Assembly: GCA_964016885.1 (NCBI GenBank)
Contig: OZ024743.1
Location: forward strand, 172,546,001-172,610,000
Length of the DNA stretch: 64,000 nucleotides
Source of the DNA: Eledone cirrhosa
Taxonomy: Eukaryota
Direction: 5' to 3'
Under the pieces are notes generated by a model, which had not been told where the DNA came from, did no database searches, and saw nothing but the letters and a program-made list of their open reading frames with translations. Positions 1-37,910 of this stretch are shown in pieces. The translations under genes were made by a program, and so were the position numbers. Numbering within the stretch: the first letter of the stretch is position 1; the number at the start of each line of letters is the position of its first letter.

Positions 1-3000
1 CATTTTGGTGAGAGTTGGGCTGGGACAAGGGACGACGGTGAGGCGGTAGCAGATGACGGATGCGATGTACGCATTCGACACCTCTGCTGAGCCTTTCAGG
101 GACAGCTTCCTCTCGGCCCATTTCTGGGTGAGGGAGGCCACCTTGCTCGTCACCTCGTTCCAGTTTTTCTCCATCTGGAGGTCCGTCCCGAACCAGACCC
201 CGAGCAATTTAACCGGTCCGTCCGTCCAACGCCTCACGGCGCTGTCGGACGGCATGGACTTGCTTCTCCAGGTGCCGAGCTGCAAGCCCACCGACTTTTC
301 CTGGTTTATCTTTGCTCCTGTCACCGCTTCGTATTCCTTGAGAGCGGTGCTGAGCATCTGGACGTGTCTGGTGCTCGACACCACCACGGCGATATCGTCG
401 GCGTAAGCCGACTCCGATTTCTCGCATCCTAGTTCGCGTGGGACGCCCCTCATCACTCCCAGTTTGTGCAGTAACGGCTCGAGAGCCAATACGTACAAGA
501 GGGACGAGAGGGGACAACCCTGGCGGACCGAGTGCATGATGCTGAACGGCTGCGACAGGTGACCGTTCACCCTCACAACTGAGCAGATGTCGCTGTACAT
601 CGCAGCGATTCAACCCCTGAAAACGGGCCCGAAACCGGCTGCCTCGAGGACAGCCGCCAGGTACCGATGGTCGACCCTATCGAATGCTTTGGATTGATCC
701 AAGTTGATCAGGGCCCCACCCGTGCCAGGTTCCTTAACCACCCTCTCTATGATGTATCGCATAAGGTGTAGGTTGTCGTGTATGGATCTGTCCGGAATGG
801 CGCATGTCTGTGCCTCTCCCACCAGACCCTTGACGACAAGCGCCAACCTCGTTGCTAACACCTTTAACACGTTTAGCAGGGTTATGGGCCTGAAGTTATC
901 GATAACATCCCCCTTGTTCGGGTCTTTTCTCAGCAGCGCCACCGCTCCTCGTCTCACAAAACTAGGAATGCTCCCGTTCTGTTGTCAGTTGCAGTAGACA
1001 TCTGCTAAGAGGTCACCGAACAAGTCTGGCATAAATGCATAAAGCTCGTAGGGCAGATCATCCAAACTTGGCGATTTACCCCTCGTGCAGCTAGCCATCG
1101 CTTCCCGTATTTCACTGGCTGTTATTGGCTTTTCGCAACACTGTGCTGCAGTCGTCGAGAGCCGAGGCAGTCCATCGAGGTATCCACTGAAGTCCCCGAT
1201 CCGGCCCGCCGCTGCTCCCGAATAGTTCAGCAAAGTGCTGCAGAAAAGCTTCACACATCTGCTCGGGTTCAAGCAGCACGCGCCCGTTTTGATCAGACAA
1301 AGACCGAATTGTGGCTTGGTTGCCACGTCGCGCCTCTGCCACCTGGGGCCCATTGGACGGCTTTTGTCCCCTCGTGTTTCAGAGCACGCGCTCTAGCTCT
1401 GACAACGCAGACTTCGTGTTTTGCGTTGAAGAATTGGTCGAGTGCCAATCTCGCCGCAAGCACGTCGGTTGCGATGCCTGTCCTATACGCCTCTTCTAGC
1501 TTTCTGACTAGCTTTCCCTCTACTCTATTTTCCTCTATCACTACTCCTTTGCTAAACCTAATCTACCCTACTTTAATTGCCCTTTTCAGGGCAAACCACC
1601 ACCTGTTGTTGACGATCGCTCCCGTCAACTCCCGCTTAACTAATACGCTAATCCGGTCTCTGTAGGCGTTGCGCGCCCGAAAAGACGCCTTCAGCTTCCA
1701 GTAACCGGGCCCTTGCCTATGAAGTCTGTCTATGTCGATCTCACAGATCACAAATTTGTGGTCTGTGTAGTCGACTAACTAACCTTAAAGAGCGGGACGT
1801 TCCAAGAAAGGTCTCTAGACGTCTGAAGATCTGGCCTTCCTGTCCCTGTCGGAGAATAGACGGCTACTAGCCTGAAAGCGTTGCCTTTGGTGCCGCTTAC
1901 GTCCAGCACCACCAACTTACCTTCTGGGTCCAGGAAGATGGTCCGTATGGCGAGACCCAAGCCTTTCCGAAACAACACAGCCACTTAGTTTCTTGTTGTG
2001 TGTATTTATTGCTGTGCATTTCTTTTTCTGGAGGTGGGGTGTGGTTCTGCTATTTTCTTGTCGTTGTTGCTGGGTGTGTGTGTTTTGTTGTGTTTGCGAT
2101 GTTGCTGCTTGTGGTGGTGGTGTTGAAGGTGTTGTTGTTGTTGGCGGTGGGGTTGCCGCCGGTGGTGATGGTAGTGCTAGTGTGGGTGGGGATGGTGTTG
2201 GTGGTGTTGCTGCTGTAAGTCTCTTTGCAGTAGCCTTCACCCTTTTTTCATTTCTTCCTTCCATTTTCGAAGGCGACGATGCTCTGATTCTGCGTTTGTG
2301 CTTTCTTGCGACCTTTTGCCATCCCTCTCCCACCTCACACTCCATGTCCGATTCTGTGAGGTCGGGGAGGGGGGTACCAGCTCCACTCTTTCACTTGTTC
2401 TTGTTGGTGATGGTTGCAGTGGAGTCTCTGTTGCAGCTGCAGTTGGTATTACTGTTGTTGTTGTTAATACTTCCACTGCTGCTGCTGTTCTTGATTTCCG
2501 TGGCGTTGGTATGGATGCCACGCACCTATCCTTCCTGCTTGCCGCCTGTCCTGTTGCTGGTAGCAATGGAGCCGGTTTCGGAAGGAGGGGGTTTTTCTCC
2601 TTTTTCAGGGTCTTCTCATTGCAGAAGGCCCTGAAGTGAGTCTTCGACCCACAGCGAAAGCATTTCAGGCGTTTGACCTCAACACTTATGGGAAGTTGAG
2701 TGCCGTCATCGAAGTCTATCACATCCAGGATAGCTTCGATACACTCCTCGTTGGTTTGAATTAACATCTCAATGGAGGCGCCGACCTAATCTTCTCATAC
2801 TTTTTTCTGTACTTGCAGTACGGTTGTTTTGTCCTCGATTCCGACGAGGACAGACGTGGCCAGCCAAGAAGGGGCTATCCCTGGGGGGACTTGGGTCAGT
2901 TTGACCCTCACAATTTTTTGCCCGCAGTAGGAGGGCACCAACACCATTTCCTCGCTCCTTAGGGTTACCCCTCTTGGGGTATGGCAAAAAGCACGTCCAC

Positions 3001-3975
3001 GGTGGCATATTTCTTGCCTTGGGTGATATGCGTTTTCTGCTGCAATACAGGCCCTAAGGCTTTTTGTATTTGAGCCTCTGTGGCTCTTTCAACCCTATGT
3101 GATTTTGTGCTTACTGTACGGTACGTGACCGTACAGTGCTGTTGGGTTTCGAAAAATGTTTCGGCTGCCTTGCAGATTGCTCTGTGTCCGGTTTTCGTCA
3201 CCATCTTCTTTGCTTCCTGTAATTCCTCATTTGTTATAAGGATGGTTTCCAGGTTCTTTGCGATACCTGCAAACGAGATTGGTTTTTTTTCTTGTTATTG
3301 CTGCTGGTACTACGACCGACGCCGCCGCTGTTGCTGTGGTTGTTGTTGTTGTTGCTGCTGCTGTTGTTGTTTATGCTGCTGCTGATGTTGTTACGGCTGC
3401 TACTAGTATTTTCCTCGCCACTGTTGCTGCTGCTGTTGTTATTACGGCTGTTGCTGCTATTCTTCATGACGTCAGACGAATGAAATGGCTTTCCGTATTT
3501 AGCGCACACATCTTTCGTCGTTGTCGTCGTCGTGGAGAAATGATCCACGGCACGCGCGTTCTCTTGATGAAGAAAAGTACGAGAAACTACATTTTTCTTT
3601 TTTTTTAATGGCGTCGCTTGCGAAAGAGGCGATAGAGGCGACATCACATTTAGAGAAGGGAGGGAGAGAGACAATCTTTTCTCTGACGTAATGACGATCG
3701 GAGAAGAAGAAGGCGGAAGGAGTGGGAGTGACTTGTGAAAATTCTTTTTTGTAGCCATGTTTTCTTTTTACGGTTTAAAATGGATATGGGGCACAAAACC
3801 CCAATAACTGGTTATTTAACCCCGAAGGGCCAAATAACGGGCAGAAAAACCCCTCTCACGAAGAGGAGGGTGTCTTTATCTACAATTTGGTTCAGTTTTA
3901 AACAATTTACAATTGTTATAACGGTTAAAAATTACAATAACTTACAGAGCCGAGCCTCCGTCAACGATGGCATTC
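1..3975 (-). mobile_element. Tx1-clade non-LTR retrotransposon, copy 1 (divergent subfamily; degenerate; 3' part runs off window)
   Basis: Minus-strand fragments: ORF1 (3758 to ~2237, CCHC knuckle CFRCGSKTHFRAFC), APE remnants (FRLVAVYSP, GPGYWKL) and RT motifs (FRPITLLN, LDQSKAFDRVDH, RQGCPLS, YADD). The 5' end abuts (TAA)n at 3976. Confidence 0.9.
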
Positions 3976-4029
<54 letters not shown>

Positions 4030-4030
<1 letters not shown>

Positions 4031-4283
4031 TGTTCTTTATTAACCACAAGGGTTTACATAAAGTAGACATTAAGGACAGTACAGGACAATACAGGACGGT
4101 ACAAATGGGCATTTCTGCGTGTAAAAAAAACAGAGGATGAAATAAAATAACAAAGAAAAATTCCCCAATAGGGGGGAGACTTCCGAGGGACATTTGTGGA
4201 GAAAGCCCATTAAAAGACCACAGTGGCCCTGACCACCAGGGCAAGTGCCCTCTCCCAGTTTTCCACCTTTAATTTACAGACAC

Positions 4284-4286
<3 letters not shown>
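4030..4286 (-). mobile_element. 5'-truncated Tx1 3'-end fragment flanked on both sides by (TAA)n
   Basis: Near-identical to the 3' UTR of the full Tx1 at 26178-26447; TAA arrays lie at 3976-4029 and 4285-4333. Confidence 0.9.
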
Positions 4287-4331
<45 letters not shown>

Positions 4332-4356
<25 letters not shown>

Positions 4357-7143
4357 TATCCTCAAAGCAACAGCAAATACGGTGAGGAAACTACTTGGTA
4401 TAAAAGCGAGAGGAAACAACAGACAAGAAAGAGCAGAGCCGTGGTGGAAGAAGCGACTGAGTGGGCAAATCGGGGAAATGAGAAATGACATAGGAAAGCT
4501 TGAGTCACTACTGAATGGGACACTAAAAAACATAGGCACTAAAAATAGACTGGAAATAAAATACAAAACTAGGAGTAAAAAGCTAAATATTATCATAGAG
4601 GAATTGAAGCAACGCATTGTAGCAAAGAGTGCCAAAATCAGGCGATACGAGAACAGAGTCAGTCAGTATAAACAGAACCGCATGTTCGACAACAACCAGA
4701 AGATGCTGTTTGGACAGCTTGAGGGGAAAGAAAGAGGCAACGACTTGATCCCTGGGGCGGAACAAGCTAAAACATTCTGGAGAGGAATATGGGAGCAGGA
4801 TGTTAGACACAATGCCCAGGCAGGGTGGATTGAGACAGTACAGAGGGAGATCGGTGAGCAGGCACAGCAACAGACTGATTTGAGTATCACAGTTGAAACT
4901 CTTAAGGGGCAAGCCAAAAAACTAACCAACTGGAAATCACCAGGCCCAGATGGTGTGCAGGGGTATTGGATTAAACATTTAACATCCCTCCACCCGAAGC
5001 TGACGGCCATGTTCAATGACTGCTTGGTGACGGGTGAGGTGCCAGAGTGGTTGACAAAAGGTACCACAGTTCTGATAATGAAAGACCGAATCAAGGGTAA
5101 TGATGTTACCAACTATAGACCTATCACATGTCTGCCCGTAATGTGGAAACTGTTGACGAGCATTGTGTCTGAGGAAATCTACCATCACCTCCACACAAAC
5201 AACTTGTTGCCGGACGAACAGAAAGGATGCCGAAAGAAGTCACGTGGTACAAAGGACCAGCTGCTTATTGATAAGATGGTAATGGGGAATTGCAGGAGGA
5301 GACACACTGATCTTGCCATGGGATGGATAGACTACAGAAAGGCATTTGACATGGTGCCTCATTCCTGGATCACCAAAAGCCTGGAGATCTTCAGGGTGGC
5401 AGATAACATCAGACAGTTGCTGGGCAGGAGTATGGGGTCCTGGGAGACAGAGTTGACATCAACTGGAGTATCCTTGGGAAGCGTGAAGATCAAGTGAGGT
5501 ATCTTCCAGGGAGATAGCCTATCCCCTCTGTTGTTTGTCCTTGCCCTGATGCCCTTGACCATTATGCTGCGAAAAGTGAGAGCAGGATACAAGTTGGGAA
5601 GGGGAGAGCTTACCATCAATCACCTCCTCTTCATGGACGATCTTAAGCTCTTCGGGAAAAGTGAGAAGGAGTTGGATGTGCTTGTTGACACTGTCCGTAT
5701 TTTCAGCAGTGATATATGTATGCAGTTTGGTATTGGTAAATGTGGAGTCATTGTGATGAGGAGGGGTAGGTTGAGCAGAAGTAACGGGATCCAGATACCA
5801 ACAGGTGAGATGATAAAGGAAATTGACTCTGAGGAAGGATACAAGTATTTGGGCGTTCTGGAGGCTGATGGCATAAAGAACAAAAAAATGAAGGAATTGT
5901 TAAGAACTGAATACATTCGGAGAGTAAGGAGCGTATTGAAGTCACATCTGAACAGCAGAAATGCCATAAGCGCAGTAAATTCCCGAGCTGTGTCTATTAT
6001 TAGGTACAGTGCGGGAATTCTGAGATGGAATGTTGCTGAACAAAAAGAAATGGATAGGAAGACTAGGAAGCTATTGACTATCTACAACATGTTCCACAAG
6101 AGGAGTGATGTCGATAGACTCTACCTAAGGAGATCTGAGGGTGGAAGAGGTCTTATCAGCATAGAGGACTGTGTTCAGATGGAGAAAAACAACCTATACA
6201 AATACGTGACCTATAGTAAGGAGCCAATGCTCAGAGCTGTACTGAAGGAGGAGACAGTAGGCCAGGGGATACCCAAGGAGGAAATAACATCAAGGAGGAA
6301 GAGCAGCCTTAAGGGAAAATCCCTTCATAGTACCTTCTTTGAGAAAACTGAATTTAGAGATCCACAGACATGGAACTGGTTGAGAAGAGGAGACCTCAAA
6401 AAGGCTACAGAAGGAATGCTAATGGCTGCGCAGGAGCAGGCCCTCAAAACGAAGTGGTTGAAGCACCATATCTACAAGGAGGAGGCTAGCCCACTGTGCA
6501 GGATCTGTGGAGAGAGAGAGGAGACTGTGGCTCACATTGTGTCCGAGTGTAAACACCTAGCCCAGACCCACTATAAGGGCTGGAGACACGATGTGATGGG
6601 CAGGGTGATCCACTGGCACCTGTGCAAAGTAAACAATCTACCACATTCTGAGAAATGGTATGAGCATAGGCCAGAGGCGGTGATGGAGAACAGTCAGGTG
6701 AAGGTGATGTGGGATTTTAGGATACAGACGGACAAAAAACTGGAACACAATAGACCTGACCTGGTGGTTGTGGACAAAGAAAAAAGATCGTGCCTGATTG
6801 TGGATGTGGCCTGCCCGTTCGACACGAGAGTGCAAGAGAAGGAGAGGGAGAAAATTAACCGATACCAGGACCTAAAGTGGGAGGTGAAAAGGATTTGGAA
6901 CTGCCATGAAGTCAAAGTGATCCCGATTGTCATAGGCGCACTGGGGACTATCTCCAAAGGTTTCCAGGGATGGTTAAAGAAAATCGGCCCCTTCACGCTT
7001 TTTGGAACGCTTCAAAAGGCATGCTTGCTTGGAACGGCAAGAACCCTCCGATACGTCCTGAATATCTGAGGCTGCAGGTAGTGGCTTGATATTCAATCCA
7101 ACGGACTTTCCAGTTAACCAACATCAATGACTGAGATTCAAGG
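4332..7143 (+). mobile_element. R4/Dong-like family A, 5'-truncated copy with one nonsense mutation
   Basis: Nearly identical to 14070-16861. AGA>TGA at 5495 splits the ORF (4223..5497, 5531..7069). AAC/AAT tail at 7144-7187. Confidence 0.95.
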
Positions 7144-7225
7144 AATAACAATAACAATAATAATAATAATAATAACAATAATAATAAGGTTACTGATAAT
7201 AATAGTAGTAGTGGTAGCAGTAATA

Positions 7226-7323
7226 GTTAACTTCGACGGGATTTGAACTCAGACCGTAAAGAGACGTAATTGTGCTGGAAAGCATGGCGTCCGACTCTCT
7301 ACCGATACTGCCAATTCACTGCC
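7226..7323 (-). mobile_element. tRNA-derived SINE, 5' fragment
   Basis: Reverse complement shows A box TGGCAGTATCGG and B box GAGTTCAAATCC; homologous to 7753-7945. Confidence 0.75.
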
Positions 7324-7493
7324 CCTAACAATAACAATAATAACATGGAAAAAGTGGGGAAACTTTACCCATCCTCACTATTATCAACCGTCAGTTGACC
7401 AATCGGACATTAAATCAATCGGCAATCCCTCAACTTTTTCATAGACACATCCTCTCACCCAACGTTACCATTAATCCTCACCCCTATTAACAT

Positions 7494-7672
7494 AATTGTT
7501 TCTACTTTTGGCACACGGCCAGCAATTATCCCAGTGTATTACTGGTACTTTATTTTATCGACCACGCAAGGATGAAAGGCAAAGTTAACCTCGGCGGGAT
7601 TTGAACTCAGACCATAAAGGGGCATAACTCTTTGCTGCAAAGCATAGCGTCCGACCCTCTACCGATACTGCC
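7494..7672 (-). mobile_element. tRNA-derived Nin/Deu-domain SINE
   Basis: Reverse complement of the SINE at 7753; central AACTTTGCCTTTCATCCTT..GGTCGATAAAATAAAGTACC domain. Confidence 0.85.
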
Positions 7673-7752
7673 TTCAACCTTAATCATCCATCTCTTATCA
7701 TTGTCTTTTTACTTTTTATTCTCTATTTATTGGTTTTTATTATTTTTATTTT

Positions 7753-7945
7753 GGCGGTGGATTGGCAGTATCGGTAGACGGTCGGACGCCATGCTTTGAC
7801 GTATAGAGTTGCGGCCCTTTCCATTCTGAATTCAAATCCCGCCGAGGTTAACTTTGCCTTTCATCCTTACGGGGTCGATAAAATAAAGTACCAGTAATAT
7901 ACTGGTTAATTGCTGGTCTTGTGCCAAAATTAGAAACAATTATTA
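7753..7945 (+). mobile_element. tRNA-derived Nin/Deu-domain SINE
   Basis: A box TGGCAGTATCGG, B box TTCAAATCC, Nin-like core, 3' end CTTGTGCCAAAATTAGAAAC followed by (ATT)n. Confidence 0.85.
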
Positions 7946-7999
7946 TTGTTATTGTCATTACCATTTTACGCATCTATCCACTCATCATTACAACTATTA

Positions 8000-10900
8000 C
8001 TAGCAATTTAACCGGTCCGTCCGTCCAGCGCCCGATGACGCTGTTGGGCGGCATGGAGCTGCAGGCCCACCGACTTTTCCTGGTTGATCATTGCTCCTGT
8101 CACCGCTTCGTATTCTCTTACTGTAGTGCCGATCGCCTCGGTGTGTTTGGCGGAAATATCGTCCGCATATGCTGACACGGATCTTCCACATCCTAGTTCG
8201 CGCGAGACCCCTCAACGTCTCCAGTTTGTGCAGTAATGGCTCGAGAGTCAATACATACAAGAGGGGACATCCTTGGCGGACCGAGCGCATGATGTTGAAC
8301 GGTTCCGAAAGGTTACCGTTCACTCTCATCACAGAGCAAATGTCGCTGTGCATGGCCACTGATCTAAATTGATCAAGGACCCACCGGTGCCAGGTTCCCT
8401 AGCAACCCTCTCCACGATATATCGCATGAGGTGGAAGTTGTCGTGGATGGATCTGTCGGGAATGGCACATGTCTGCGCCTCTTCCACCAGACCATCAACG
8501 ACAAGCGCCAACCTCTTTGCTAGCACCTTGGCCAAAATCTTGAACACTGTGTTTAGCAGAGTTATGGGCCTGAAATTATCTATGTTATCCCCCTTGTTCG
8601 GATCCTTTCCCAGCAGCGCCACAGCTCCTCGGCTCACAGAGCTGGGAATACTCCCGTTCTGTTGCAGTAGACGTCCGCCAAAAGGCCTCTGACATCTGGC
8701 ATCTGTACGTAAAGTTCATAGGGCAGACCATCCAAACCAGGCGATTTACCCCTTGTGCAGCCAGTCATTGCCTCCCGTATTTCAGCGGCTGTTATCAGCT
8801 TTGGACAACACTCCGCCTCAGTGGCCGAGAGTTAGACACTAAAGTCCGTCGAGGTAGACACTAAAGTCCATCCCTCGATCCGGCCCGCCGCTGCCCCCGA
8901 ACAGCTGAGCGAAGTGTCGCTGAAAAACTTCATACATTTGCCCGGGATCGAGTAGCATGCGCCCGTCGTGGTCCACCACTCGGGCCCATTGAACGGCTTT
9001 CGTCCCCTCGTGTCTGAGAGTGCGCACCCTAGCTCTGACAACGCAGCCTTCGTGCTTTGCATTGAAGAATTGGTCAAGGGCCAATTTCGGCGCAAGTACG
9101 TCGGTAGCCATGCCTTTGCTAAGCGCCTCGTCTAATTTTCTAACTAGTTCTCCCTCTGCTCTATTTTTCTCTATTGTTAAAGCCTTACTAAAGCTAATGA
9201 ACTCTATTCTAAACGATCTTTTGAGAGCAAACCACCTTTTGTTGTTGACTATGGCCCCCGTCAATGTTCGCTTAACTAGTTCGATAATCCGGTCTCTGTA
9301 GGCCTTGCGCGCTGGTAAGGACGCGTTTAGCTTCCAGTAGCCGGGTCCTCGTCTATGAAGCCTATCTAAGTCAAGCACACAGATCACGAATTTCTGGTCC
9401 GTGTAGCTGACTATCTTGAATTGTGGACAGTCTATGCTAGACATATCTATTTCCCTACAAAATACTCTATCTAGATATGATCTGGATGAACCGATGCTGT
9501 TTGTTCAAGTCCACATTGGCACATTCGGGAAATCCAATCGGTACCTGTCAGATAGTTCAAAACGCCTGAGCAGGTTGGTGAGGCTTTTGCACCCTCCTCC
9601 CCTATCCGCTAATCCCACACAGTCCCAGCGTGCATCTAAGATCCCGTTCCAGTCGCCCACTAACACTAAAGAGCGGGACGTTCCAAGAAAGGTCTCCAGA
9701 CGCCGGAAGAAATCAGGCCGCCCTGCTCCTGTCGGGGCATAGACGGCCACTAACCTGAAAGCTTGCCCGTCTCCGCTGGTCACGTCCAGCACCACCAACT
9801 TACCTTCTGGGTCCAGGAAGATGGCCCGTATGGCGAGATCCAAACCCCTCCGAAAAAGCACATCAACTCCTCCCCCCGATCCCGGACGGCTGGGAGATGC
9901 GTATACATCGTAGCCGCCGAAGATCAGTGCGAAGGCCCGTGCTTCGGAGATGCTGGTCTCGCTGATGGCCACTACATCTATGTTTAGTGACCTGAGGTCG
10001 TTGAGCAGGTGTCCTTGCTTCCATGACGACCCCAAGCCACGCGCATTTATGCTGCTTTTTCTGAGTGAGGTCATGTTGAAATGGAGTGGAAAAGATGGGA
10101 AAGACCACTTACCTTACTTCTCGTAGAGGAAGGATGGTTTGTCCATCCTTTTCACTGCTTGTGGCCTTCTCCGGAAGGATGTCCTTATAAATCCTCCTGG
10201 AGAGTGTTTGTCGGAAGTCTCCGATGTCTTTGGGGAATTTTTGTTTTAGTGTCGTGTACGTTTTCTGTGTGATGCGAGTGATTTGTATGTGTGGAGGTGG
10301 TATGAACTTTTGGGTTGTTGTGTAGTCTTTTTCTGTGATGCTGGTGTTGTGTTGCATGTAGTGTAATAATTGGTTGTTGTTCAAATTTAATTGTTTCTAC
10401 TTTAGGCACAAGGCCAGCAATTACCCAGTGCATTACTGGTACTTTATTTTATCGACCCCGTAAGGATGAAAGGCAAAGTCAACCTCGGCGGGATTTGAAC
10501 TCAGATCGTAAAGGGACGTCACTATGCGTCAAAGCATGGCGTCCGTCCCTCTACCGATACTGCCAATCCACCCCTTGTTGTAATAATTGGTTGTTGTTCA
10601 AATTTAATGCTGTGTAGTGTGTATCGTTTTGGTTGTTTTGTTTTGTTTGCGTTTGTTGTGGGTTTGTTTCTGTTACGCTTTTTGGTGACTTTTGTGGTGT
10701 TGATGATGGTGGTGTTGGGGTTAATGATGGTGATGGTGTTGGTGTTTGTGGTGATGGGGTTGGTGATGCTGGTGTGGATGGTGGCATATCTGTCCTAACT
10801 TTTTTGTATGATAATTTATTTGTTTCCCTCTGTATTTTGTTTTTGGAGGGGGAAGGAAGAGGATTTTTTTCTTTTTTTGGTTTCTTTTTTTCGTTTTTCC

Positions 10901-26434: not shown

Positions 26435-29400
26435 TTACAGACACATACTCAGAGAAGGCCCATTCATTCGGGCCATACTTGCTTCTCTCACCCATCTTTC
26501 AACAAAATGCTGGGAAGAGAGCACTTCCCTCTCTACCCTGATTTTCCTTTTCAGATGAAATTTGAAAAAGTTAATCAGGCCATCACCGAAGAGGTAAGTG
26601 CTCGTCTTCAGCCCTTTCAAACGTGTCCAGCATACTATCTCTTTCGCCATGGCCACCAGACAGATAAAAACTGCCTCCCCTCCCGGCTAAAGGAAGAGGG
26701 CGGGGCAATCCTCACGATGGACTCAGCTGATAGCTGGATCCGTCCTACACGTGACAGCAGGTGTTCGACATAAACCCACAAGTCAGCAATGCTCGGACAC
26801 TGGACGAGTGCGTGCAGGACGGTTTCGTCGCCCTATGCGCATCTCGGACATGCCCGGCTGACGGCACCTCCATGCCTGTAAAGTTTATCCCGAACTGGCA
26901 AAGCACCCCGGTAGCACTGCCAGGCCAGGGATTTCTGGAAGTTGTCCATAGGCCCCGGCCCGAAAGTCCTTCCGAAGAGATTGGCTAGTTGATTTTCGTC
27001 GACGCCTAGAGTTTCTCCAAGTACGTCGTCGCTCTTCCCCTCCACTAATCCCCTATAGAACGCCAAGGTGTAGTTTCCACCGATCACATTGCCCGATTGG
27101 TCGAGGGCTGTGAGCGCCTGAAGACATTCCAGTCTCCAAGCGCTCCCTCTCGGTCTTCGCTTGACCCAGGACTGCAGCTCCGTCAAGGAGACGAGCTGGG
27201 GAAAAACGTGTCTAGCAAACGGCGACCACACCTGATCACCGTCGAGGAAGAGGTGGAGATGTCGTAGCCTGAGCGCGTGTCTGCGCATCATCAGCCACGG
27301 CATGCCCAGCCCTCCACGTAGCGGGTGTTGACAGCAGATGGACCGCCTGACCATCGGAGCGCGTCCCTTCCACAAGAAGCGAAACAGCAAACGCTCCAGC
27401 GCAGTCAGGCGGGGCTTAGGACAAGGTACGACGGTCAGGCGGTAGTAGATGACGGACGCGATGTACGCGTAAGCCACCTCCGCTCGACCTTTCAGGGATA
27501 GCTTCCTCTCGGCCCATTTCTGGGTGAGAGAAGCCACCCTGCTCGTCACCTCGTCCCAGTTTTTGTCCGTCTGGATGTCTGGACCGAACCAGACCCCTAG
27601 CAATTTAACCGGTCCGTCTGTCCAGCGCCCGACGACGCTGTTGGACGGTATGGACCTGCCTCTCCAGGTGCCGAGCTGCAGGCCCACTGACTTTTCCTGG
27701 TTGATCATTGTTCCTGTCACCGCTTCGTATTCTCTTAGTGTAGGGCCGATCGCCTCGATGTGTTTGGCGTTCGACACCACTACGGTGACATCGTCGGCAT
27801 ATGCTGACACAGATCTTCCGCATCCTAGTTCGCGCGGGATCCCCCTCAACGTCTCCAGTTTGTGCAGTAATGGCTCGAGAGTCAATACGTACAATAGGGA
27901 CGAGAGGGGACATCCTTGGCGGACCGAGCGCATGATGTTGAACGGTTCCGAAAGGTGACCGTTCACTCTCACTACAGAGCAGATGTTGCTGTGCATGGCA
28001 GCGATCCAGCCTCTGAAGACGGGCCCAAAGCCAGCCGCCCTCAGGACTGCCACTAGGTAACGATGGTCGACCCTATCGAAGGCTTTCGACTGATCTAAAT
28101 TGATCAAAGACCCACCCGTGCCAGGTTCCCTAGCTACCCTCTCTACGATGTATCGCATGAGGTGGAGGTTGTCGTGGATGGATCTGTCGGGAATGGCGCA
28201 TGTATGTGCCTCTCCCACCAGACCACCAACGACAAGCGCCAACCTCTTTGCTAACACCTTGGCCAAAATCTTGAACTCTGTGTTTAGCAGAGTTATGGGC
28301 CTAAAATGATCTATGTTATCCCCCTTGTTCGGATCCTTTCTCAGCAGCGCCACTGCTCCTCGGCTCACAGAGCTGGGAATTCTCCCGTTCTGTTGCCAGT
28401 TGCAGTAGACGTCCGCCAAGAGGCCTCCGAACAAGTTTGGCATTTGTACGTAAAGTTCATAGGGCAGACCATCCAAACCAGGCGATTTACCCCTTGTGCA
28501 ACTAGTCATTGCATCCCGTACTTCAGCGGTTGTTATCGGCTTTTCGCAACACTCCGCCTCAGTGACCGAAAGCCGCGGCAGTCCGTCGAGGTAGACACTA
28601 AAGTCCATCCCTCGATCCGGCCCGCCACTGCCCCCGAACAGTTAAGCGAAGTGTCGCCGAAAAGCTTCACACATTTGCCCGGGATCGAGTAGCATGCGCC
28701 CGTCGTGGTCCACCAAAGACCAGATCGTGGCTTTGTTGCCACGACGCGCCTCCGCCACTCGGGCCCATTGAACGGCTTTCGTCCCCTCGTGTCTGAGAGC
28801 ACGCACCCTAGCTCTGACAGCGCAGCCTTCGTGCTTTGCATTGAAGAATTGGTCAAGGGCCAATTTCGCCGCAAGTACGTCGGTCGCGATGCCTTTGCTA
28901 AGCGCCTCATCTAATTTTCTAACTAGTTCTCCCTCTGCTCTATTTTTCTCTATTGCTAAAGTCTTACTAAACCTAATGGACTCTATTCTAATTGCTCTTT
29001 TCAGAGCAAACCACCACTTGTTGTTGACGATGGCCCCCGTCAACGCCCGCTTAACTAGTTCGCTAATCCGGTCTCTGTAGGCCTTGCGCGCTGGTAAGGA
29101 CGTGTTTAGCTTCCAGTAGCCGGGTCCTCGCCTATGAAGCCTATCTAAGTCAAGCACACAGATCACAAATTTGTGGTCCGTGTAGCTGACTATCTTGAAT
29201 TGTGGACAGCCTATGCTATACCTATCTATTTCCCTACAAAATACTCTATCTAGATATGATCTGGATGACCCTATGCGATTTGTCCAAGTCCACATTGGTA
29301 CATTCGGGAAATCCATTCGGTACCTGTCAGACAGTTCAAAACGTCTGAGCAGGTTGGTGAGACTCTTGCACCCTCCTTCCCTATCCACTAATCCCACACA

Positions 29401-29853
29401 ATCCCAGCGTGCATCTAAGATCCCGTTCCAGTCGCCCACTAACACTAAAGAGCGGGACGTTCCAAGAAAGGTCTCCAGACGCCGGAAGAAATCAGGCCGC
29501 CCTGCTCCTGTCGGGGCATAGACGGCCACTAACCTGTAAGCTTGCCCGTCTCCGCTGGTCACGTCCAGCACCACCAACTTACCTTCTGGGTCCAGGAAGA
29601 TGGCCCGTATGGCAAGATCCAAACCTCTCCGAAAAAGCACAGCAACTTCTCCCCCCGATCCCGGACGGCTGGGAGATGCGTACACATCGTAGCCGCCGAA
29701 GATCGGTGCGAAAGCCTGTGCTTCGGAGATTCTCGTCTCGCTGATGGCCACTACATCTATGTTTAGTGACCTGAGGTCGTTGAGCAGGTGGCCCTGCTTC
29801 CATGACGACCCCAAGCCACGCGCATTTATGCTGCCTATTCTGAGTGAGGTCAT
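26435..29853 (-). pseudogene. Tx1 ORF2 (APE endonuclease + RT + C-terminal CCHC), with premature stops
   Basis: SINARGL, AISET, GDWN, YLDR, TDH (APE); KSPGLDG, DQSKAFD, QGCPLS, YADD (RT). In-frame stops at 28642 and 26833; CPRC..ETVLHALVQC follows. Confidence 0.9.
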
Positions 29854-29887
29854 GTTGAAAAGGAGTGGAAAAGATGGGAAAGACCAC

Positions 29888-31881
29888 TTACCTTACTTCT
29901 CGTAGGGGAAGGACGGTTTTTCCATCCTTTTCACTGCTTGTGGCCTCCTCAGGAAGGATGTCCTTATAAATCCTCCTGGAGAGTGCTTGTCGGAAGTCTC
30001 CGATGTCTTTGGGGAATTTTTGTTTTAGTGTCATGTACGTTTTCTGTGTGATGCGAGTGATTTGTATGTGTGGAGGTGGTGTGAATTTTGGGGTTGTTGT
30101 GTAGTCTTTTTCTGTGATGCTGGTGTTGTGTTGGATGTAGTGTAATAATTGCTTGTTGTTCAAATTTAATGCTGTGTAGTGTGTATCGTTTTGGTTGTTT
30201 TGTTTTGTTTGCGTTTGTTGTGGGTTTGTTTGTTTCGCATTTTGGTGACTTTTGTGGTGTAGCTGATGGTGGTTTTGGAGTTAATGATGGTGATGGTGTT
30301 GGTGTTTGGGTTGATGGGGTTGGTGATGCTGGTGTGGATGGTGGCATATCTGTCCTAACTTTTTTGTTTCTTAGTTTATTTGTTTCCCTCTGTATTTTGT
30401 TTTTGGAGGGGGAAGGAAGAGAATTTTTTCTTTTTTGGTTTCTTTTTTTTCCGGATATCGTTTTCCACTCCTCGTCGTCACAATCTGTCTCCAGCTGTGA
30501 TAGGCCGGGGAGTGGAAAATCCTCCACAGGCGTTAGTTTTGGTTGTGGCGTGGTGGATGGTGTAGGCGCTGGTGCTAGTTCTGAAGCGTTGGGTGGTGGT
30601 GGTGTTGGTTTTGCTGGTGGTGGTGGTGGTGGTGTTGGTTTTGCTACTGTTGCTGGGGTTGTTGCTGTTATAGTTGCTTCTGTTGTTGCTGCTACAGTTG
30701 TTGCTGCCATCTCTGCTACTGGTGGTGTTGATGGTTGTGTCACTGGGGTGGGTAGGAGAGGTGGCCTCAACCTTTTAGCCTGAGGGCAGAAAGCCCTTAG
30801 GTGGGTTCCTTCACCACAAACGACACACCTAGGTCTTCTGCCCTCGACAATTACCGTGAGGTGGCTGCCGTCAGTGAGGTCTATTACCTCTGGGATCTCC
30901 TCAAAGCTTTTTTGGTCCGCTTGGATCAGGAGCTCCATCCCAGATCCGGACCAGTTCTCCTGCTTTTCTTTTGCTATTGCTATTATTTTCGTGTTGGCTT
31001 CGATGCCGGCGAGGACGGCCGCTATTAGCCAGGGAATTTCGATGGCCGGTGGAACGTGGGTCACCCTGATCTTTACGAGTCTCTGGCCACAATAGCTTGG
31101 GACGAGTGTGAAGTCGTCACTTCTTAATGGGGCCATGGAGTGTTCTCTAGCCTCCTCTGGTGTTTCAAAGAACACGTCCACAGTTCCATACTTTTGCCCA
31201 CGTCTGATGTGGGTTTTTCTTGCCCACACTTGTTCCAAAGCTTTTTGGATTTGGGACTCGGATGCCCGTTCCACTCGGCGCGATTTTACATTTATTGTTC
31301 TATACGACACGGTGCATAGGCGCCGATGCTCCATTTTATTAGGTGGGGGGGGTGAGGCTGATCCTGTACCCATCTTTTTTTACCATTTGTTTGGCATTTT
31401 CTAAATCCTCCTGAGTTACCGTAAATGCTTCGAACGGTTTTGCTACTCTGGCGAAACTGAGGGTCGGTTTTATAATGTCATTGTTGTTGTTGTTGCTATC
31501 GTTATTTGCATTAATATTAATTTTAGTTTCAGTTGTGGTTGTGGTGACGTCAGTCGTCTTTGGTGGGGAAGAGTCCATTTTGCTTGATTTCATTTCGACA
31601 TCACGAGTTAATTCATTTTTTTCTTCTTTTGTTTCTGTTGTCGCGGTGGTGGTGGGGGTGGTGGTTGTCGCGGTGGTGGTGGTGGTGGAGGCTTTAACAC
31701 CTGCAGTCATTGGTAATGGCGGGAAATGAATGTCTGCCTGAGACAAATTTAAAATATTGCTAGTGCTTATATTTTTTTTAGTGTTGGCAAACGTAGTAAC
31801 ATTTACAATGGTGGTGTCGGTGTGAGGTTTTAATTTGTGAGAAAGGCTTTCAGCTGCTTCGTGCAGAGGTGAATTAGACAT
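29888..31881 (-). pseudogene. Tx1 ORF1 (gag-like, CCHC knuckle, Pro/Thr-rich), frameshifted
   Basis: ORFs 31339..31881, 29964..31373 and 29888..30163; knuckle CVVCGEGTHLRAFC (CX2CX4HX4C). Confidence 0.85.
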
Positions 31882-32094
31882 TTTTTTTTTTCAAAGAAAT
31901 TTTTTGATAATAATAAAAGTTAAAATTTTGGGCACAAGGCCCCAATCTTTTTGGGTGTCCTTTTTTGGAAAACAATGTATGTGCGCTTATATATGGTTAA
32001 CAATAAAAATTTTCCATAAATGGCAATTTTTAACAAACGGAAATAACAAACCTTTGCGGAGCTCACGATGATACGATTTACTACGTAGGTCGCC

Positions 32095-32127
<33 letters not shown>

Positions 32128-32129
<2 letters not shown>

Positions 32130-32206
32130 TTTCTTTATTAACCACAAGGGTTTTATAATAATAATAATAATAATAATAATGATTTCTTTATTAACCACAA
32201 GAGTTT

Positions 32207-32207
<1 letters not shown>
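32128..32207 (-). mobile_element. Two 27-bp Tx1 3'-terminal stubs embedded in (TAA)n
   Basis: GATTTCTTTATTAACCACAAG(G/A)GTTTT at 32128-32154 and 32181-32207 match the Tx1 3' terminus at 26178. Confidence 0.85.
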
Positions 32208-32262
<55 letters not shown>

Positions 32263-35200
32263 GGGAAGAAGACGCACGAGGTGGTTGAACGTCACGAAAT
32301 TGCTCCCGTAAGTTTTTTGATTTTTAACATATTTAAATCAATTGTGAAAGAACAATTCTTAGCACAAATGTTGCATAAAGGCACCGAATGAGGTCCCATA
32401 AAGTTTCGGATCCATATTATATTGTTGTATCGCTCAAATATTCAATTTTGTATTATATATTTTGTATTCAAAAAAAGAAAATGGTTATAAATGGAACAAA
32501 ACACCCTCTGTCTACACTATATAGAACAGCGGCAATTTCAATTTCACCAACACCAGAAACTTGATACACTACCTATCCCATCACACTAAATATAACGGCA
32601 ACTTCACCGGCATCATAATAATAATTACTATTATTATTGTCTCAAATTTTAAAAAATGTTTAATTCAAATTTTACGGGAATATGTCAACACAAAATATAA
32701 TGAAAATATATATTAAACATACGAACACAAACTCATAGATACTATATCAGTAACCACAACACCACCGCTGCCACCTCCCCACCACATCCATCATCGCCGC
32801 CACCACTCATTCAATGCTACTGACACTATTCCCCTGTTAACTTGAGAGAGAAAAGGGAAGGTGGTGGTATCACTAGACAAGAGAGAGGCTAGCAAAAGAT
32901 ATAAATAGATTGACTTGGTGACCTTGCCACGGACAAACGTCTACATCAACAATTATGGGACTGCTGGCTCACCCCTTCCTCACCAACAATATAAAAAGCC
33001 CCGGCACCACCACCGACATAGCCAGCAGCAATAACAGCCAACTACAACAAAAAGTATATTATATTATTGTAATGCACTGGGTGATTGCTGGCCTTGTCCC
33101 TGGAGTGGAGACAATTATTAATAATTTCATTCTTAAGCCACGCAATGCTCACATTAAGGTACCACTCATGATAATAACAATTTAAAAAAAACAACAAAAA
33201 GAAAACCCCGTGACCAAGAAATACCGGGATGGCGGCCGGCGGGGAATAGCCATGTCTCTAGGGGAGAACGACCCCTCTAGTCTTGGTTGACACTCGTTCT
33301 AGAAGTGGTAACACGAAAAGATTACCCCTTGGCGGTTAAGGATAAAACGCGACAAAATAAGGTAGATGTCTAATGATGAAATCTCATACCGGATCGGCCG
33401 TCACCCGGGTAAAAAAGGGCCGCGTCCCTCAGAGAGGAACCAGACTGGGGTCGAAAAATCAGCTAATGGTTCAAACCTTCCCATCACTTCGGAGCTGGAG
33501 ACCTCCCATAACCGGAATACTCCTACTGTTGGCCCTCCATGCTCACCACCAAGAAATCCAAAGAAAAAGAGAGAAAAATGGTCAAGGGAAGATAATAAAG
33601 AAGTCCTTGAGGCTTTCTACACTGCCATGTACTACCCATCAAATACATCGAATACAGAGCAAACATATATCAACTGGAAAAAGAAACATCCCGAAAACAG
33701 AGGCTATATTGACAGTAACAAACTAGCCAATATACGAAGAAATATTGTAAGAAAAAAGTTACTAACTGATATAGAAATTGATCAGATCAAGCTAGTAGCA
33801 CAAAGTCAGCGAAGGGAAAATGAAGCATGTGTCAGTGAAAACGAGGTAAACTGTAACACTTCGAATCCCAGAGTTGGGGCGGAATCACTGGCAACAGAAC
33901 AAATTAAAGAAAGGAGCGAAAAAGTGGAGGGAGTGCATGCTCAGGATGAAACTCCAAATGAAAATAATGAGATCGTAAATGATAAAGAAATGAATGAGAA
34001 TGAACTTGCCAACTTGAAGGATGAAATTATGATCGAATGGATGAAAATGAAAGAATCTGACATGGGGGAACGAGACACCCTCCCTAAGATCCAGAACTCC
34101 AAACAGAACCAAAAGATAATACACAAGACTAACATAATTCTCAAAAACATTATCATCACAAACAAAATAAACATTACTGACTTAAATCATCTCTATTATG
34201 CATCGGCTAAAGTCACCACTCACTTATGTGGAGTGAAGATGAAAAAACAAAGGAATTCCCACAAGAAATCTACTTGGCAAGATAACATCAATCGCCAAAT
34301 AAACCTTCTCCGATCTGACATAGAAATTTTAACAAACTATAAAGTAGGTGAACATGTTAAACAAACTAGACTTAGAAAATTGAAAAAAAAGTACAGTATA
34401 AGATCAACATGTGACATAGACATGCTGATAGAAACAATCAAGCAAAAAGTGTCGGCCAAAGCTGCTCGTATAAGGCGCTTTGAAAAACGATCTAGATTCT
34501 ATAAGGACAATAATATGTTCAAAAACAACCAAAGAAACTTCTACAGAAAAATTGGTAAGTCAACAATAACTGCTAAATCAATACCACCCAAGGAGGAAGT
34601 GCAAGAATTCTGGGAAAAGATCTGGGCCGAAGAAAAAGTTCATAACATACATGCCCCATGGATAGACAGACAAATGAAAGAAACAGCTCACCTTGAAGAA
34701 CAAACATGGGAAAATATAACAGTTGAACAGCTGCGCTTGGCTCTAAGAAAAACCAGCAAATGGAAATCCCCAGGAAAAGACAAAATACAAAACTTTTGGA
34801 TAAATGCCTTCACAGAGTCTCATGAGCTGTTAGCCCAACTTTACAATGAAATAGTTAAGGAGCCAGAAAAGATACCATCATGGCTAGTTAACGGCATTAC
34901 ATTCCTGCTACCGAAGAATGATGAGACAAACAATCCCAAAAATTACAGACCGATAACCTGCTTGACCACAATGTATAAAATTTTAACATCAGTCCTAACT
35001 GAATACACATATGACCACCTGATAACAAATGACCTATTTCCCATTGAGCAGAAAGGGTGTAAACGAGGCTCATATGGCTGTAAGGATCAGCTTCTGGTTA
35101 ACAAAATGATACTGGAAGATTGTCATAATAGACACAAAAATCTATCGATTGCTTGGATAGATTATAAAAAAGCATTTGATAGTTTGCCACACAGTTGGAT

Positions 35201-37156
35201 TGAAAAATGTTTAGAGATTTTCAAAATATCCCCCGTTGTCAGGAGGTTTTTGTCATTCAGTATGAGGACATGGAGAACGACACTCCTTTTGAATAGTGAA
35301 ACAAAATCACTGGAAGCTGGAGAAGTTAACATTAATTGTGGAATTTTTCAGGGTGACTCTTTATCACCGCTTTTATTCTGCATCGCACTTATACCATTAA
35401 GTAAAATGCTCAATGAAACAAAACATGGATATAGAGTCTATGACAAAACCATTAATCACCTGTTCTACATGGATGACCTGAAACTATTTGCAAAAAATGA
35501 TGAACAATTGCAAGGGCTATTATCCACTGTGAAGCAGTTCAGTGATGACATTAAAATGGAGTTTGGACTGGATAAATGCGCCAAAGCAACGTTCACCAGA
35601 GGAAAGCTGCTGAAGAGTTCAGACATTAATCTTGATCGGGGGAACGTGATAAGAGAGCTTGATCAAGAACAAACTTACAAATATCTAGGTGTTTGTGAAG
35701 GAGACGGAATCAAGCACTCGACAATGAGGGAAAGGATAAGGAAGGAATGTTACCGCAGAGTCAGAGCAATCTTAAGAACGGAATTGAATGCAAGGAATAG
35801 GATCGATGCCATAAACACGCTTGCCATACCAGTAGTAACCTACAGTTACAATGTCATCAACTGGTCAAGCACAGAGATCCGTAGGCTCGATACAAAAATC
35901 CGAAAATTCTTAACCATGCACAGAATGCATCACCCTAAGGCAGACATAGATAGAATATATCTCCCTAGGAAAGAAGGAGGACGTGGGTTAATCCAGTTAG
36001 ACATTGCGTTGAAAACTGCAACAATTGGATTATCCACATATCTAAGGGAATCACATGATTGGATGATCAAACTCGTTTTGAAACACGAAAGCACCAAAAG
36101 ATCATATTCCATTACAAAAGATGCACAAAGATACAGTAATGGACTACAAATTTCAGAAGTCCCATTTACTGCTGAAATGGAAAACACAGAAAAAGCAAAG
36201 CAGGTAAAAGTAACTGCAAAGAAAGAACTGCTACAGAAACTGGCTAAGAAATGGCAAGAAAAGCCTCTGTATGGAAAATACCCAGAGCGAGCTAACAATC
36301 CTGATGTTGACAAAACTTTAACCCATCAGTGGTTGGCATCCTCTGGACTGAAATCGGAGACTGAAGGACTGATTATATCCGCACAAGATCAGTGTCTGCC
36401 AACAAAAAATTACCAAGCCAACATAATAAAAAATGGGTGCAGCCCACTATGCCGTGTATGCAAAAAACAACCAGAGACCATTGACCATATAATTTCAATG
36501 TGCAGTCCTATAGCTCCAACCGAATACCTAAACAGGCATGACAGAGCTGCACAATACATACATTGGATAATGTGTAAGCATTTTGACCTGCCCCATCAAA
36601 AGAATTGGTGGGAGCATCAACCACCTCCCATACTTGAAAAAGATCACATCTCAATCTTGTGGAACTTTAGCATCCAAACAGACCGAAAAATAGATGCAAA
36701 TAGACCTGATATAATATTGAAGGACTTTCAAAGGAGGGTATGCCTGCTAATTGATATGTCTGTTCCAATAGACAAGAATGTATCTATAAAAACATTTGAA
36801 AAATTGAGCAAGTATAAGGACCTGGAGATAGAAATTGGAAAAATGTGGAAATTGAGAACTAAAACAATACCAGTGGTTGTAGGCGCTCTGGGAATGATAC
36901 CTAAGGGGTCTAACGACTACTTATCGCAAATCCCAGGAAACCCGCGTATAGGAGAAATACAAAAGATAGTACTAATGGGAACTGCCCATATACTAAGGAA
37001 GATCCTGTCAATATAAGTACATCACAAGTCTAAACACTAAGGATGCATGTGTGAATATGTGTGTTCTTTCTTGAACATGGCGGACCTTGTTGTCTCTTGA
37101 GGTCACTGGTTGTGACTTGGTGATAACTCGTATAAACATAAAGCAAGATAAATGCA
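32263..37156 (+). mobile_element. R4/Dong-like family B, apparently full-length
   Basis: Starts directly after (TAA)n; ~1.1-kb 5' region, intact ORF, 140-bp 3' UTR, TAA tail at 37157-37210. Confidence 0.92.
33366..37016 (+). CDS. R4/Dong-type polyprotein, family B: RT, CCHC, RLE (1216 aa, intact)
   Basis: KSPGKD, YRPITCL, IDYKKAFD, GIFQGDSLSP, YMDD; CRVCKKQPETIDHIISMC; RHD; NRPDIIL..IDMSVP..EKLSKY. Confidence 0.95.
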   Translation: MSNDEISYRIGRHPGKKGPRPSERNQTGVEKSANGSNLPITSELETSHNRNTPTVGPPCSPPRNPKKKREKWSREDNKEVLEAFYTAMYYPSNTSNTEQTYINWKKKHPENRGYIDSNKLANIRRNIVRKKLLTDIEIDQIKLVAQSQRRENEACVSENEVNCNTSNPRVGAESLATEQIKERSEKVEGVHAQDETPNENNEIVNDKEMNENELANLKDEIMIEWMKMKESDMGERDTLPKIQNSKQNQKIIHKTNIILKNIIITNKINITDLNHLYYASAKVTTHLCGVKMKKQRNSHKKSTWQDNINRQINLLRSDIEILTNYKVGEHVKQTRLRKLKKKYSIRSTCDIDMLIETIKQKVSAKAARIRRFEKRSRFYKDNNMFKNNQRNFYRKIGKSTITAKSIPPKEEVQEFWEKIWAEEKVHNIHAPWIDRQMKETAHLEEQTWENITVEQLRLALRKTSKWKSPGKDKIQNFWINAFTESHELLAQLYNEIVKEPEKIPSWLVNGITFLLPKNDETNNPKNYRPITCLTTMYKILTSVLTEYTYDHLITNDLFPIEQKGCKRGSYGCKDQLLVNKMILEDCHNRHKNLSIAWIDYKKAFDSLPHSWIEKCLEIFKISPVVRRFLSFSMRTWRTTLLLNSETKSLEAGEVNINCGIFQGDSLSPLLFCIALIPLSKMLNETKHGYRVYDKTINHLFYMDDLKLFAKNDEQLQGLLSTVKQFSDDIKMEFGLDKCAKATFTRGKLLKSSDINLDRGNVIRELDQEQTYKYLGVCEGDGIKHSTMRERIRKECYRRVRAILRTELNARNRIDAINTLAIPVVTYSYNVINWSSTEIRRLDTKIRKFLTMHRMHHPKADIDRIYLPRKEGGRGLIQLDIALKTATIGLSTYLRESHDWMIKLVLKHESTKRSYSITKDAQRYSNGLQISEVPFTAEMENTEKAKQVKVTAKKELLQKLAKKWQEKPLYGKYPERANNPDVDKTLTHQWLASSGLKSETEGLIISAQDQCLPTKNYQANIIKNGCSPLCRVCKKQPETIDHIISMCSPIAPTEYLNRHDRAAQYIHWIMCKHFDLPHQKNWWEHQPPPILEKDHISILWNFSIQTDRKIDANRPDIILKDFQRRVCLLIDMSVPIDKNVSIKTFEKLSKYKDLEIEIGKMWKLRTKTIPVVVGALGMIPKGSNDYLSQIPGNPRIGEIQKIVLMGTAHILRKILSI

Positions 37157-37209
<53 letters not shown>

Positions 37210-37211
<2 letters not shown>

Positions 37212-37817
37212 TGGCTCACATTGTGTCCGAGTGTAAACACCTAGCCCAGACCCACTATAAGGGCTGGAGACACGATGTGATGGGCAGGGTGATCCACATG
37301 CACCTGTGCAAAGTAAACAATTTACCACATTCTGAGAAATGGTATGAGCATAGGCCAGAGGCGGTGATGGAGAACAATCAGGTGAAGGTGCTGTGGGATT
37401 TTAGGATACAGACGGACAAAAAACTGGAACACAATAGACCTGACCTGGTGGTTGTGGACAAAGAAAAAAGATCGTGTCTGATTGTGGATGTGGCCTGCCC
37501 TTTCGACACGAGAGTGCAAGAGAAGGAGAGGGAGAAAATTAACCGATACCAGGACCTAAAGTGGGAGGTGAAAAGGATTTGGAACTGCCATGAAGTCAAA
37601 GTGATCCCGATTGTCATGGGCGCACTGGGGACTATCTCCAAAAGTTTCCAGGGATGGTTAAAGAAAATCGGCCCCTTCACGCTTTTTGGAACGCTTCAAA
37701 AGGCATGCTTGCAAGAACCCTCCGATACGTCCTGAATATCTGAGGCTGCAGGTAGTGGCTTGATATTCATTCCAACGGACTTTCCAGTTAACCAACATCA
37801 ATGACTGAGATTCAAGG
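37210..37817 (+). mobile_element. Dong-A short 3' fragment
   Basis: RLE region and 3' UTR of Dong-A; tail at 37818-37910. Confidence 0.93.
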
Positions 37818-37826
37818 AATAACAAC

Positions 37827-37910
<84 letters not shown>

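Follow-up and report, generated by a model that had tools for sequence, protein, structure and literature searches.

Why should two unrelated kinds of retrotransposon, one with a restriction-like endonuclease (RLE) and the other with an apurinic/apyrimidinic-type endonuclease (APE), share one simple repeat and lie in it in opposite orientation? The question is raised by a stretch of 64,000 nucleotides from the 3.0-Gb genome of Eledone cirrhosa (contig OZ024743.1; G000:C4:172,546,001-172,610,000), here called the window, in which Dong-like and Tx1-like long interspersed elements (LINEs) are joined to each other through (TAA)n tracts. Our results indicate, with a probability of roughly 0.85, that this array is a chain of independent Dong-like and Tx1-like insertions into (TAA)n, that it is one of many, and that it likely grows as each insertion splits the tract.

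Structure of the array

Between positions 1 and 37910 an inventory made by self-BLAST, open reading frames (ORFs) and Pfam, with TRF for tandem duplications, gives eight Dong-like LINEs (RLE) on the + strand and six Tx1-like pieces (APE) on the − strand. An earlier sequence-only reading had counted the same pieces as 14 insertions; the piece counts stand, but two Tx1 stubs are one 53-bp tandem duplication and the number of independent LINE events is thus 13, not 14. It had also described nearly every junction as a TAA tract, and 12 of the 13 junctions between consecutive elements consist of TAA only. All 12 pure TAA tracts of at least 18 nt are on the + strand, and no TTA tract longer than 15 nt occurs in this interval. 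The strictly opposite orientation claimed for the two element types holds overall but not for an 82-bp antisense Dong-B piece (11733-11814, −), which stands in place of about 625 bp of a Tx1 copy, is not an insertion at a TAA junction and is likely a product of template switching or repair capture.

In the order of the + strand, with that piece excepted, all Dong-like copies and TAA tracts are on the + strand and all Tx1-like copies on the − strand. An extra Dong-B copy (L121:7529-8710), 2.5 kb to the left of the window, is the first element of the array. A full-length Tx1-like copy of subfamily C with decayed ORFs follows (1-3975; Pfam matches to reverse transcriptase, RT, at 1-984), its 3' end lying 1.25 kb leftward beyond the window (L121:8747). 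Next are (TAA)18 (3976-4029), the 254-bp 3' end of a 5'-truncated Tx1-like B copy with TAA on either side (4030-4283), (TAA)23 (4284-4352), a 5'-truncated Dong-like A copy (4352-7143), a decayed TAA tract (7144-7210) and three pieces of a short interspersed element (SINE), two in array polarity and one inverted, which break the array (7225-7942). An older Tx1-like B copy without its 3' 1.4 kb (8000-11962; APE Pfam match 9505-10113) harbours a SINE (10392-10575, −) with a 30-bp target-site duplication that has TAAT at its end. Beyond (TAA)16 (11963-12010) lies a full-length Dong-like A copy (12011-16861) with an open ORF at 13362-16787, followed by (TAA)27 (16862-16942), a 5'-truncated Dong-like A (16943-18808), a TAA tract (18809-18856), a Dong-like B truncated in the 5' untranslated region (UTR) with stops in its ORF (18857-23372), (TAA)7 (23377-23397), an older, 5'-truncated Dong-like A variant 90% identical to the full copy (23398-25267), (TAA)5-7 (25270-25289), a 5'-truncated Dong-like B (25290-26148) and (TAA)8 (26153-26176). 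A full-length Tx1-like B copy (26177-32094) carries ORF1 at 29964-31379 and an ORF2 with APE (28642-29892) and RT (26833-28641) parts. Three TAA tracts with the two Tx1 3' stubs of 27-29 nt (32128-32154 and 32179-32207) occupy 32095-32261, and the right part holds a full-length Dong-like B (32262-37156) with an open 1216-aa ORF (33366-37016), (TAA)18 (37157-37210), a 5'-truncated Dong-like A of 607 bp (37211-37817), a (TAA)28 tract decaying rightward (37818-37929) and a SINE at the right end of the array (37955-38143, −).

The exceptional junction (7144-8000) consists of the decayed TAA tract, the three SINE pieces and the 1.4-kb 3' deletion of the adjoining Tx1 copy. Because of this break the uninterrupted run is one of 11 elements (8000-37929), and with the one copy left of the window the elements are split 4 + 11. 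The locus may be two fused arrays divided at this point.

An array of this kind could also have arisen by segmental or tandem duplication, or be an artefact of assembly. Three of the Dong-A copies are more than 99% alike and the two stubs are indeed a local duplication, as this explanation would have it. However, not a single element-to-element junction is repeated, truncation points vary among copies, identity to the nearest relatives ranges from 89 to 100%, and similar arrays occur on several chromosomes. Moreover, each of the 11 window copies that can be compared within the window has an equally close or closer relative outside it among the loci compared (11/11). We consider duplication or artefact extremely improbable. 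For the junction at 25270-25290, no bridging contig was present among the listed public short-contig sets, which is uninformative either way.

Identity of the two element types

The two full-length Dong copies of the window have open single ORFs of 1141 (A) and 1216 aa (B), in which RT is followed by a CCHC motif and a PD-(D/E)xK restriction-like endonuclease, with no APE. R2 proteins are the sole significant matches of these proteins in PDB (E 9e-27). At the N-terminus, where a divergent Myb/SANT-like domain and no zinc finger would be expected of Dong, a conserved W-containing block and no C2H2 motif are seen by eye; this part has no match in Pfam or PDB. No named R4/Dong reference is found among the 120 homologues listed or the Atlas matches, and the R4-clade (Dong) assignment is one that fits the domain architecture. 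In Bombyx, the available part of a report describes a hepatitis delta virus (HDV)-like ribozyme at the 5' end of Dong (PMC3774820). Neither Rfam nor a strict descriptor, both insensitive to divergent forms, detects one here.

In the full Tx1 copy (26177-32094) ORF1 has one CCHC knuckle, and ORF2, with APE and RT, is broken by a stop; no intact ORF2 is present in this copy or in four further near-full copies. Close homologues combine PF03372, PF00078 and PF13966. The top named Atlas cluster is the 'Transposon TX1 uncharacterized 149 kDa protein family' (score 0.94, 182 shared features), which is an automatic name given without alignment, and there is no named Tx1 reference among the listed homologues or cluster members. 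The Tx1-clade assignment likewise fits the architecture. Both clade calls of the sequence-only reading, and its view that two unrelated endonuclease types are involved, match these domains.

Some further features of the elements were noted. The final 500 nt of the full-length Dong-B (32262-37156) are identical in dispersed copies. The Dong-B 5' UTR contains the 3' end of a SINE with a short ATT tail (33069-33135, 19298-19350), which is also present in dispersed copies. Tandem duplications of 326 bp (12175-12825, in the 5' UTR of the full Dong-A) and 68 bp (18858-18997, in Dong-B) are found. At several Dong 5' junctions (L062, L081, L083, L043, L073, L086) short repeats of the element's own first bases or (GAA)n runs often lie between TAA and the element, which suggests re-priming at the 5' end. 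A short GCTC..GTAAG-like motif, located 20-55 nt inside the 5' end, is common to Dong A and B and three Tx families (12050-12065, 32300-32315, and on the − strand 3935-3960 and 32045-32065); it resembles a splice donor or an internal promoter element. Chimeric Tx copies, with a subfamily C 5' half (ORF1) and a subfamily B ORF2, occur twice at G000:C4:41,495,490-41,511,800 (L323-L324) and likely reflect ORF1 exchange between families. A further family, TxD (L093, L048, L202, L223, L237, L225), has a different 3' end without the stem-loop shared by the other families and follows short TAA tracts, and another repeat end (L150, L192, L196, L205) comes after short TAA runs, often beside (TA)n.

Target and polarity across the genome

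If the elements target (TAA)n, copies elsewhere should lie in the same repeat. Six genome searches, with the 30 best-scoring loci of each and five window loci removed, gave 175 element ends; a flank was called TAA when 9 nt or more of same-strand TAA lay no more than 45 nt from the end. By this measure 170 of the 175 ends are in TAA, and TTA is dominant at one. The full-length 5' ends, which carry no tail, are in same-strand TAA in 86 of 87 cases (TxB 29/29, DongB 29/29, TxC 28/29), as the sequence-only reading had expected for the 5' flanks of copies elsewhere. Dong lies in TAA in sense orientation at 29 of 29 5' ends (Dong-B) and 56 of 59 3' ends, and 5'-truncated Dong junctions are in TAA in 70 of 79 cases. 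For Tx1 families a target preference has been defined as more than 20% of flanks being of one type, in the available part of PMC4494074; of the full-length 5' ends of the Tx elements studied here, 57 of 58 are in TAA. The Tx junction has a constant phase, with AATAAT followed by two bases and the terminal motif at no fewer than 70 of 81 ends.

Could the tracts simply be 3' tails made by the elements, with those at 5' ends being tails of neighbours, so that there is no true target specificity? AAC variants of the Dong-A tail recur in dispersed copies (21, 15 and 8 of 81 ends), and as these are common to dispersed copies Dong likely adds repeat from its own RNA; the Dong tail is thus partly RNA-encoded, as this explanation would predict. 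Nevertheless, where Dong and Tx1 meet head to head by their 5' ends (12 of 29 DongB 5' loci), there is TAA that no tail can supply, and a tail-only origin is refuted by these junctions. Furthermore, TAA is present at the 5' side of isolated copies too, and where the SINE or the GATA lineage has inserted into unique DNA there are target-site duplications with no added tail. Such an origin of the tracts is therefore highly improbable.

The neighbours across the tract of the 175 ends were 68 Dong, 49 Tx, 25 SINE, one unknown repeat and 32 cases with nothing recognised, so that 117 of 175 ends face another LINE. Five of the cases without a neighbour (L062, L076, L090, L105, L133) resemble missed LINEs and were kept as they were. 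All 142 classified Dong, Tx and SINE neighbours are in the orientation that the polarity rule predicts (142/142), and the non-random orientation claimed from the single locus is thereby extended to the genome.

Clustering was assessed with a positional list of 177 exact 3'-end matches in C1:0-34.5 Mb, which is unbiased. There, 71 of 176 adjacent ends are no more than 7 kb apart, as compared to a mean of 6.3, and never more than 17, in 2000 random trials; three of the clusters contain 7-8 ends. Close pairs (7 kb or less) have the same polarity in 67 of 71 cases and distant pairs in 44 of 81. Similar clusters, for which the sequence-only reading had proposed to look, are present in four other regions with runs of 5-9 LINEs that follow the same polarity rule; these regions were picked for close matches, not at random. 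Genome-wide there are 32,154 TAA tracts of at least 10 units, 12,897 Dong-A and 6,078 Dong-B 3' ends (about 19,000 Dong) and 30,960 Tx-type 3' ends, the last number including GATA-lineage copies (about one third of the first 100 listed). Dong A, Dong B and the Tx 3' end are also covered by contigs of two other organisms. Insertions at three loci (L004, L029, L085) lie in the A-rich tails of a further repeat family, where decay of the tail yields AAT runs that likely serve as seed tracts.

How the array probably grows

Both families thus lie in TAA at both ends and in fixed opposite polarity. In target-primed reverse transcription the RNA is copied from its 3' end onward, primed at the first nick, and the orientation of an element therefore reports the strand that was nicked. 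Accordingly oriented nicks would differ between the two enzymes: the Tx1 APE would nick the TAA strand 3' of TAAT and prime there, giving an element antisense to TAA, and the Dong RLE would nick the TTA strand, giving an element in sense. Polarity would then simply follow from the strand specificity of the nick in a repeat that is asymmetric, without any cooperation. Target-site duplications are observed for the SINE and the GATA-lineage Tx1, and a duplication of 8-31 nt inside TAA means that tract remains on both sides; a duplication of about 10-30 nt, together with the partly RNA-encoded AAT/AAC tail of Dong, would leave a tract on each side of every new insertion. In this way TAA arrays may feed their own growth, as the sequence-only reading proposed.

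Uniform use of all tracts would, in a model, make array sizes geometric, and arrays of 10-15 elements would be expected. A simulation with 39,000 insertions and 20,000 seeds gave about 91 arrays of at least 13 elements and q = 0.66, near the observed 117/175; with 30,000 seeds there were about 22 such arrays. The split-the-target model would predict tens to hundreds of arrays like this one, of which the window would be the expected tail. The locus is therefore not the special landing pad that it was first taken for; it is one of the large arrays to be expected from the distribution of sizes across the genome.

It is important to note what weighs against this explanation. The flank samples, as the best 30 loci per query, represent young copies, and their 5' ends come from TxB, DongB and TxC, not from Dong-A. 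Truncated TxB junctions are in TAA in only 10 of 20 cases; at least five of the misses resemble internal breaks by eye. The leftmost Dong-B copy of the array lacks TAA at its 5' junction, a target-site duplication is unreadable within pure TAA, and the seed number in the simulation was fitted, not measured. Finally, a sample of 80 stretches of 10 kb, evenly spaced over the genome (800 kb), holds 11 long tracts; with low-complexity false labels at L328, L333 and one side of L208 re-classed by eye, 10 of their 22 sides (45%) face a LINE. As compared to 67% for young copies, this may point to a factor beyond uniform tract use.

The last observation bears on a different explanation, according to which targeting is to a short TAAT motif only and the strong clustering of long LINEs within arrays comes mainly from selection against insertions at other places (a safe haven) or from local chromatin. 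The difference between 67% and 45% speaks for it, as does the SINE: it has the same nick phase, and most of its copies lie outside long tracts, with 15 of 70 random ones in at least three TAA units. On the other hand, Dong-B copies that are 100% identical over 227 bp are clustered already, and full-length 5' ends are in TAA whether they have a neighbour or none. A rough genome-wide estimate puts the LINE-flanked sides of long tracts at about 60%, and the GATA-targeting sister lineage of Tx1 stays out of TAA arrays (4 of 34 of its 'AG' ends are near another end, against 32 of 54). We regard targeting by TAAT only as unlikely and prefer repeated splitting of the tract, with the reservation that clustering may owe something to selection or to a longer recognition site, because of the 10/22 LINE-facing sides and the preference of the SINE for short TAAT sites.

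A GATA-targeting sister lineage and the SINE

Of 20 loci with the non-clustering 'AG' variant of the 3' end, 19 belong to sister Tx families with about 70% identity to TxB. Their 3' junctions, inspected by eye, show AGATA in 14 of 19 cases and a TAA tract in none (0/19). Truncated copies have GATA on either side, two copies show duplications of about 17-20 nt, and copies of this lineage form tandem runs of their own (L346-L373, G000:C1; runs L367, L371, L372). In a tree of Tx copies, 21 TAA-flanked rows are split from 14 GATA- or other-flanked rows at 100/100, with three subfamilies on each side. The tree holds 35 of 66 copies (near-identical TxB thinned), has no outgroup and is midpoint-rooted, and it shows a single split, not independent events.

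Between the TAA and GATA lineages the APE domain is 55-60% identical; among TAA-lineage families identity is about 71% or more. We located the hairpin loop of this domain by alignment to the grafted loop of the L1 endonuclease chimeras 2v0r and 2v0s: it reads R-I/M-G-S in the TAA families and R-S/N-G-T/S in four of five GATA-lineage copies. The hairpin loop is a known element of L1 endonuclease specificity, which loop grafts shift and point changes did not, according to the available part of PMC1950540. From these differences in sequence we would predict that the loop sets the choice between TAA and GATA.

The SINE is another user of the TAAT site. Among 70 random copies in the 800-kb sample, 64 stand after TAAT (background 0.7%), and 22 of 30 top copies have perfect target-site duplications of 8-31 nt ending in TAAT, judged by eye and with a query that itself started with TAAT. 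About 70 copies per 800 kb extrapolate to about 260,000 in the genome. A 3-bp stem around CTTGT closes the SINE and all Tx families but one; it is intact in 102 of 106 Tx-type and 95 of 99 SINE ends, in three compensatory stem forms. The compensatory changes in this common 3' stem-loop suggest that the SINE has a partner among the Tx1 families. As to a tRNA-derived head, the SINE has by eye a B-box-like motif; Rfam gave chance-level matches only and ARAGORN none. We take the SINE to be like those of octopus. In the available parts of PMC3747384 and PMC4758252 no partner is given for octopus SINEs.

It is an even bet, in our opinion, that all of this belongs to one undescribed, microsatellite-specific Tx1 radiation. 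A change in the loop would have split it into TAA and GATA lineages, and the TAA lineage would have converged on the Dong target from the opposite strand. Between them the two TAA users would generate, and use up, most of the long TAA tracts of the genome in polar arrays that feed their own growth, and the SINE would be driven by this Tx1 machinery too, through its conserved 3' stem-loop.

Comparison with known systems

R1 and R2 in 28S rDNA are an APE and an RLE element in one repeated locus, as here; unlike here, they use distinct unique sites in the same orientation and the target is not regenerated. TRAS1 and SART1 both belong to the R1 clade. They insert in opposite directions in Bombyx (TTAGG)n, which makes them like the present case as two families on one simple repeat, but both are telomeric APE elements, whereas here one RLE and one APE element meet at thousands of interstitial sites (available part of PMC7265360).

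Dong is described to target (TAA)n in insects, molluscs and cnidarians in the accessible portions of PMC3812793 and PMC7998251, and the elements of Bombyx, Anopheles, Biomphalaria and an ostracod resemble those studied here in this target and in a single ORF with RT, CCHC and RLE. The Eledone elements differ in that some 19,000 3' ends lie in nested arrays held in common with an APE element, and in that the 5' ribozyme was not found by Rfam or a simple descriptor. Among molluscs R4-Dong is almost restricted to cephalopods (PMC10294476, in part), and both Dong-R4 and L1-Tx1 have recently been active in Octopus vulgaris, where the portion available of PMC13282606 notes hotspots and does not give targets. 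As for Tx1, families targeting TC (Kibi), TTC (Koshi) and TTCC/TTTC (crocodilian Tx1) are related lineages on related repeats, each an APE element with microsatellite on both sides, as here; in Eledone the targets are (TAA)n and (GATA)n, the former in common with an RLE element. SINEU and Tx1-Mar of crocodilians are a SINE and a Tx1 with a common target preference, and the Eledone SINE in addition has the Tx1 3' stem-loop with its compensatory changes and is far from rare in the random sample (PMC4494074, available part, for the Tx1 families and SINEU).

Outside subscription papers, supplements and Repbase, we found no TAA- or GATA-targeting Tx1 and no pair of RLE and APE elements on one microsatellite in the literature. 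That Dong targets TAA was already known; what is new is that known kinds of parts are combined in a way not found in print. The main interest is in the TAA and GATA sister lineages and in the SINE link rather than in the single locus. What sets the target of an APE-type retrotransposon endonuclease is an open question, and sister lineages in one genome, with 55-60% identical APE domains and different microsatellites at thousands of sites, make target choice directly testable. Convergence is seen in clean form where RLE and APE enzymes use opposite strands of one repeat, and for cephalopod genomics it would be of use to have a candidate LINE partner for so abundant a SINE. The arrays may also explain part of the transposable element hotspots reported, without explanation, in an octopus genome (PMC13282606, in part). 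A caution follows for genetic work: TAA and GATA markers in this genome are often on retrotransposon ends.

Other features of the window

To the right of the array, an element of about 4.2 kb (38395-42557) has 1.4-kb inverted arms that are 85% alike and a central 357-aa ORF (40170-41243) without a Pfam match; it is likely a foldback-type DNA transposon. An ORF with RT and GIY-YIG domains at 55756-56811 is a fragment of a Penelope-like element. Palindromic elements of 250-400 bp (50374-50633, 61914-62310, 53937-54187), which resemble miniature inverted-repeat transposable elements, are located amid (TA)n/(TG)n tracts.

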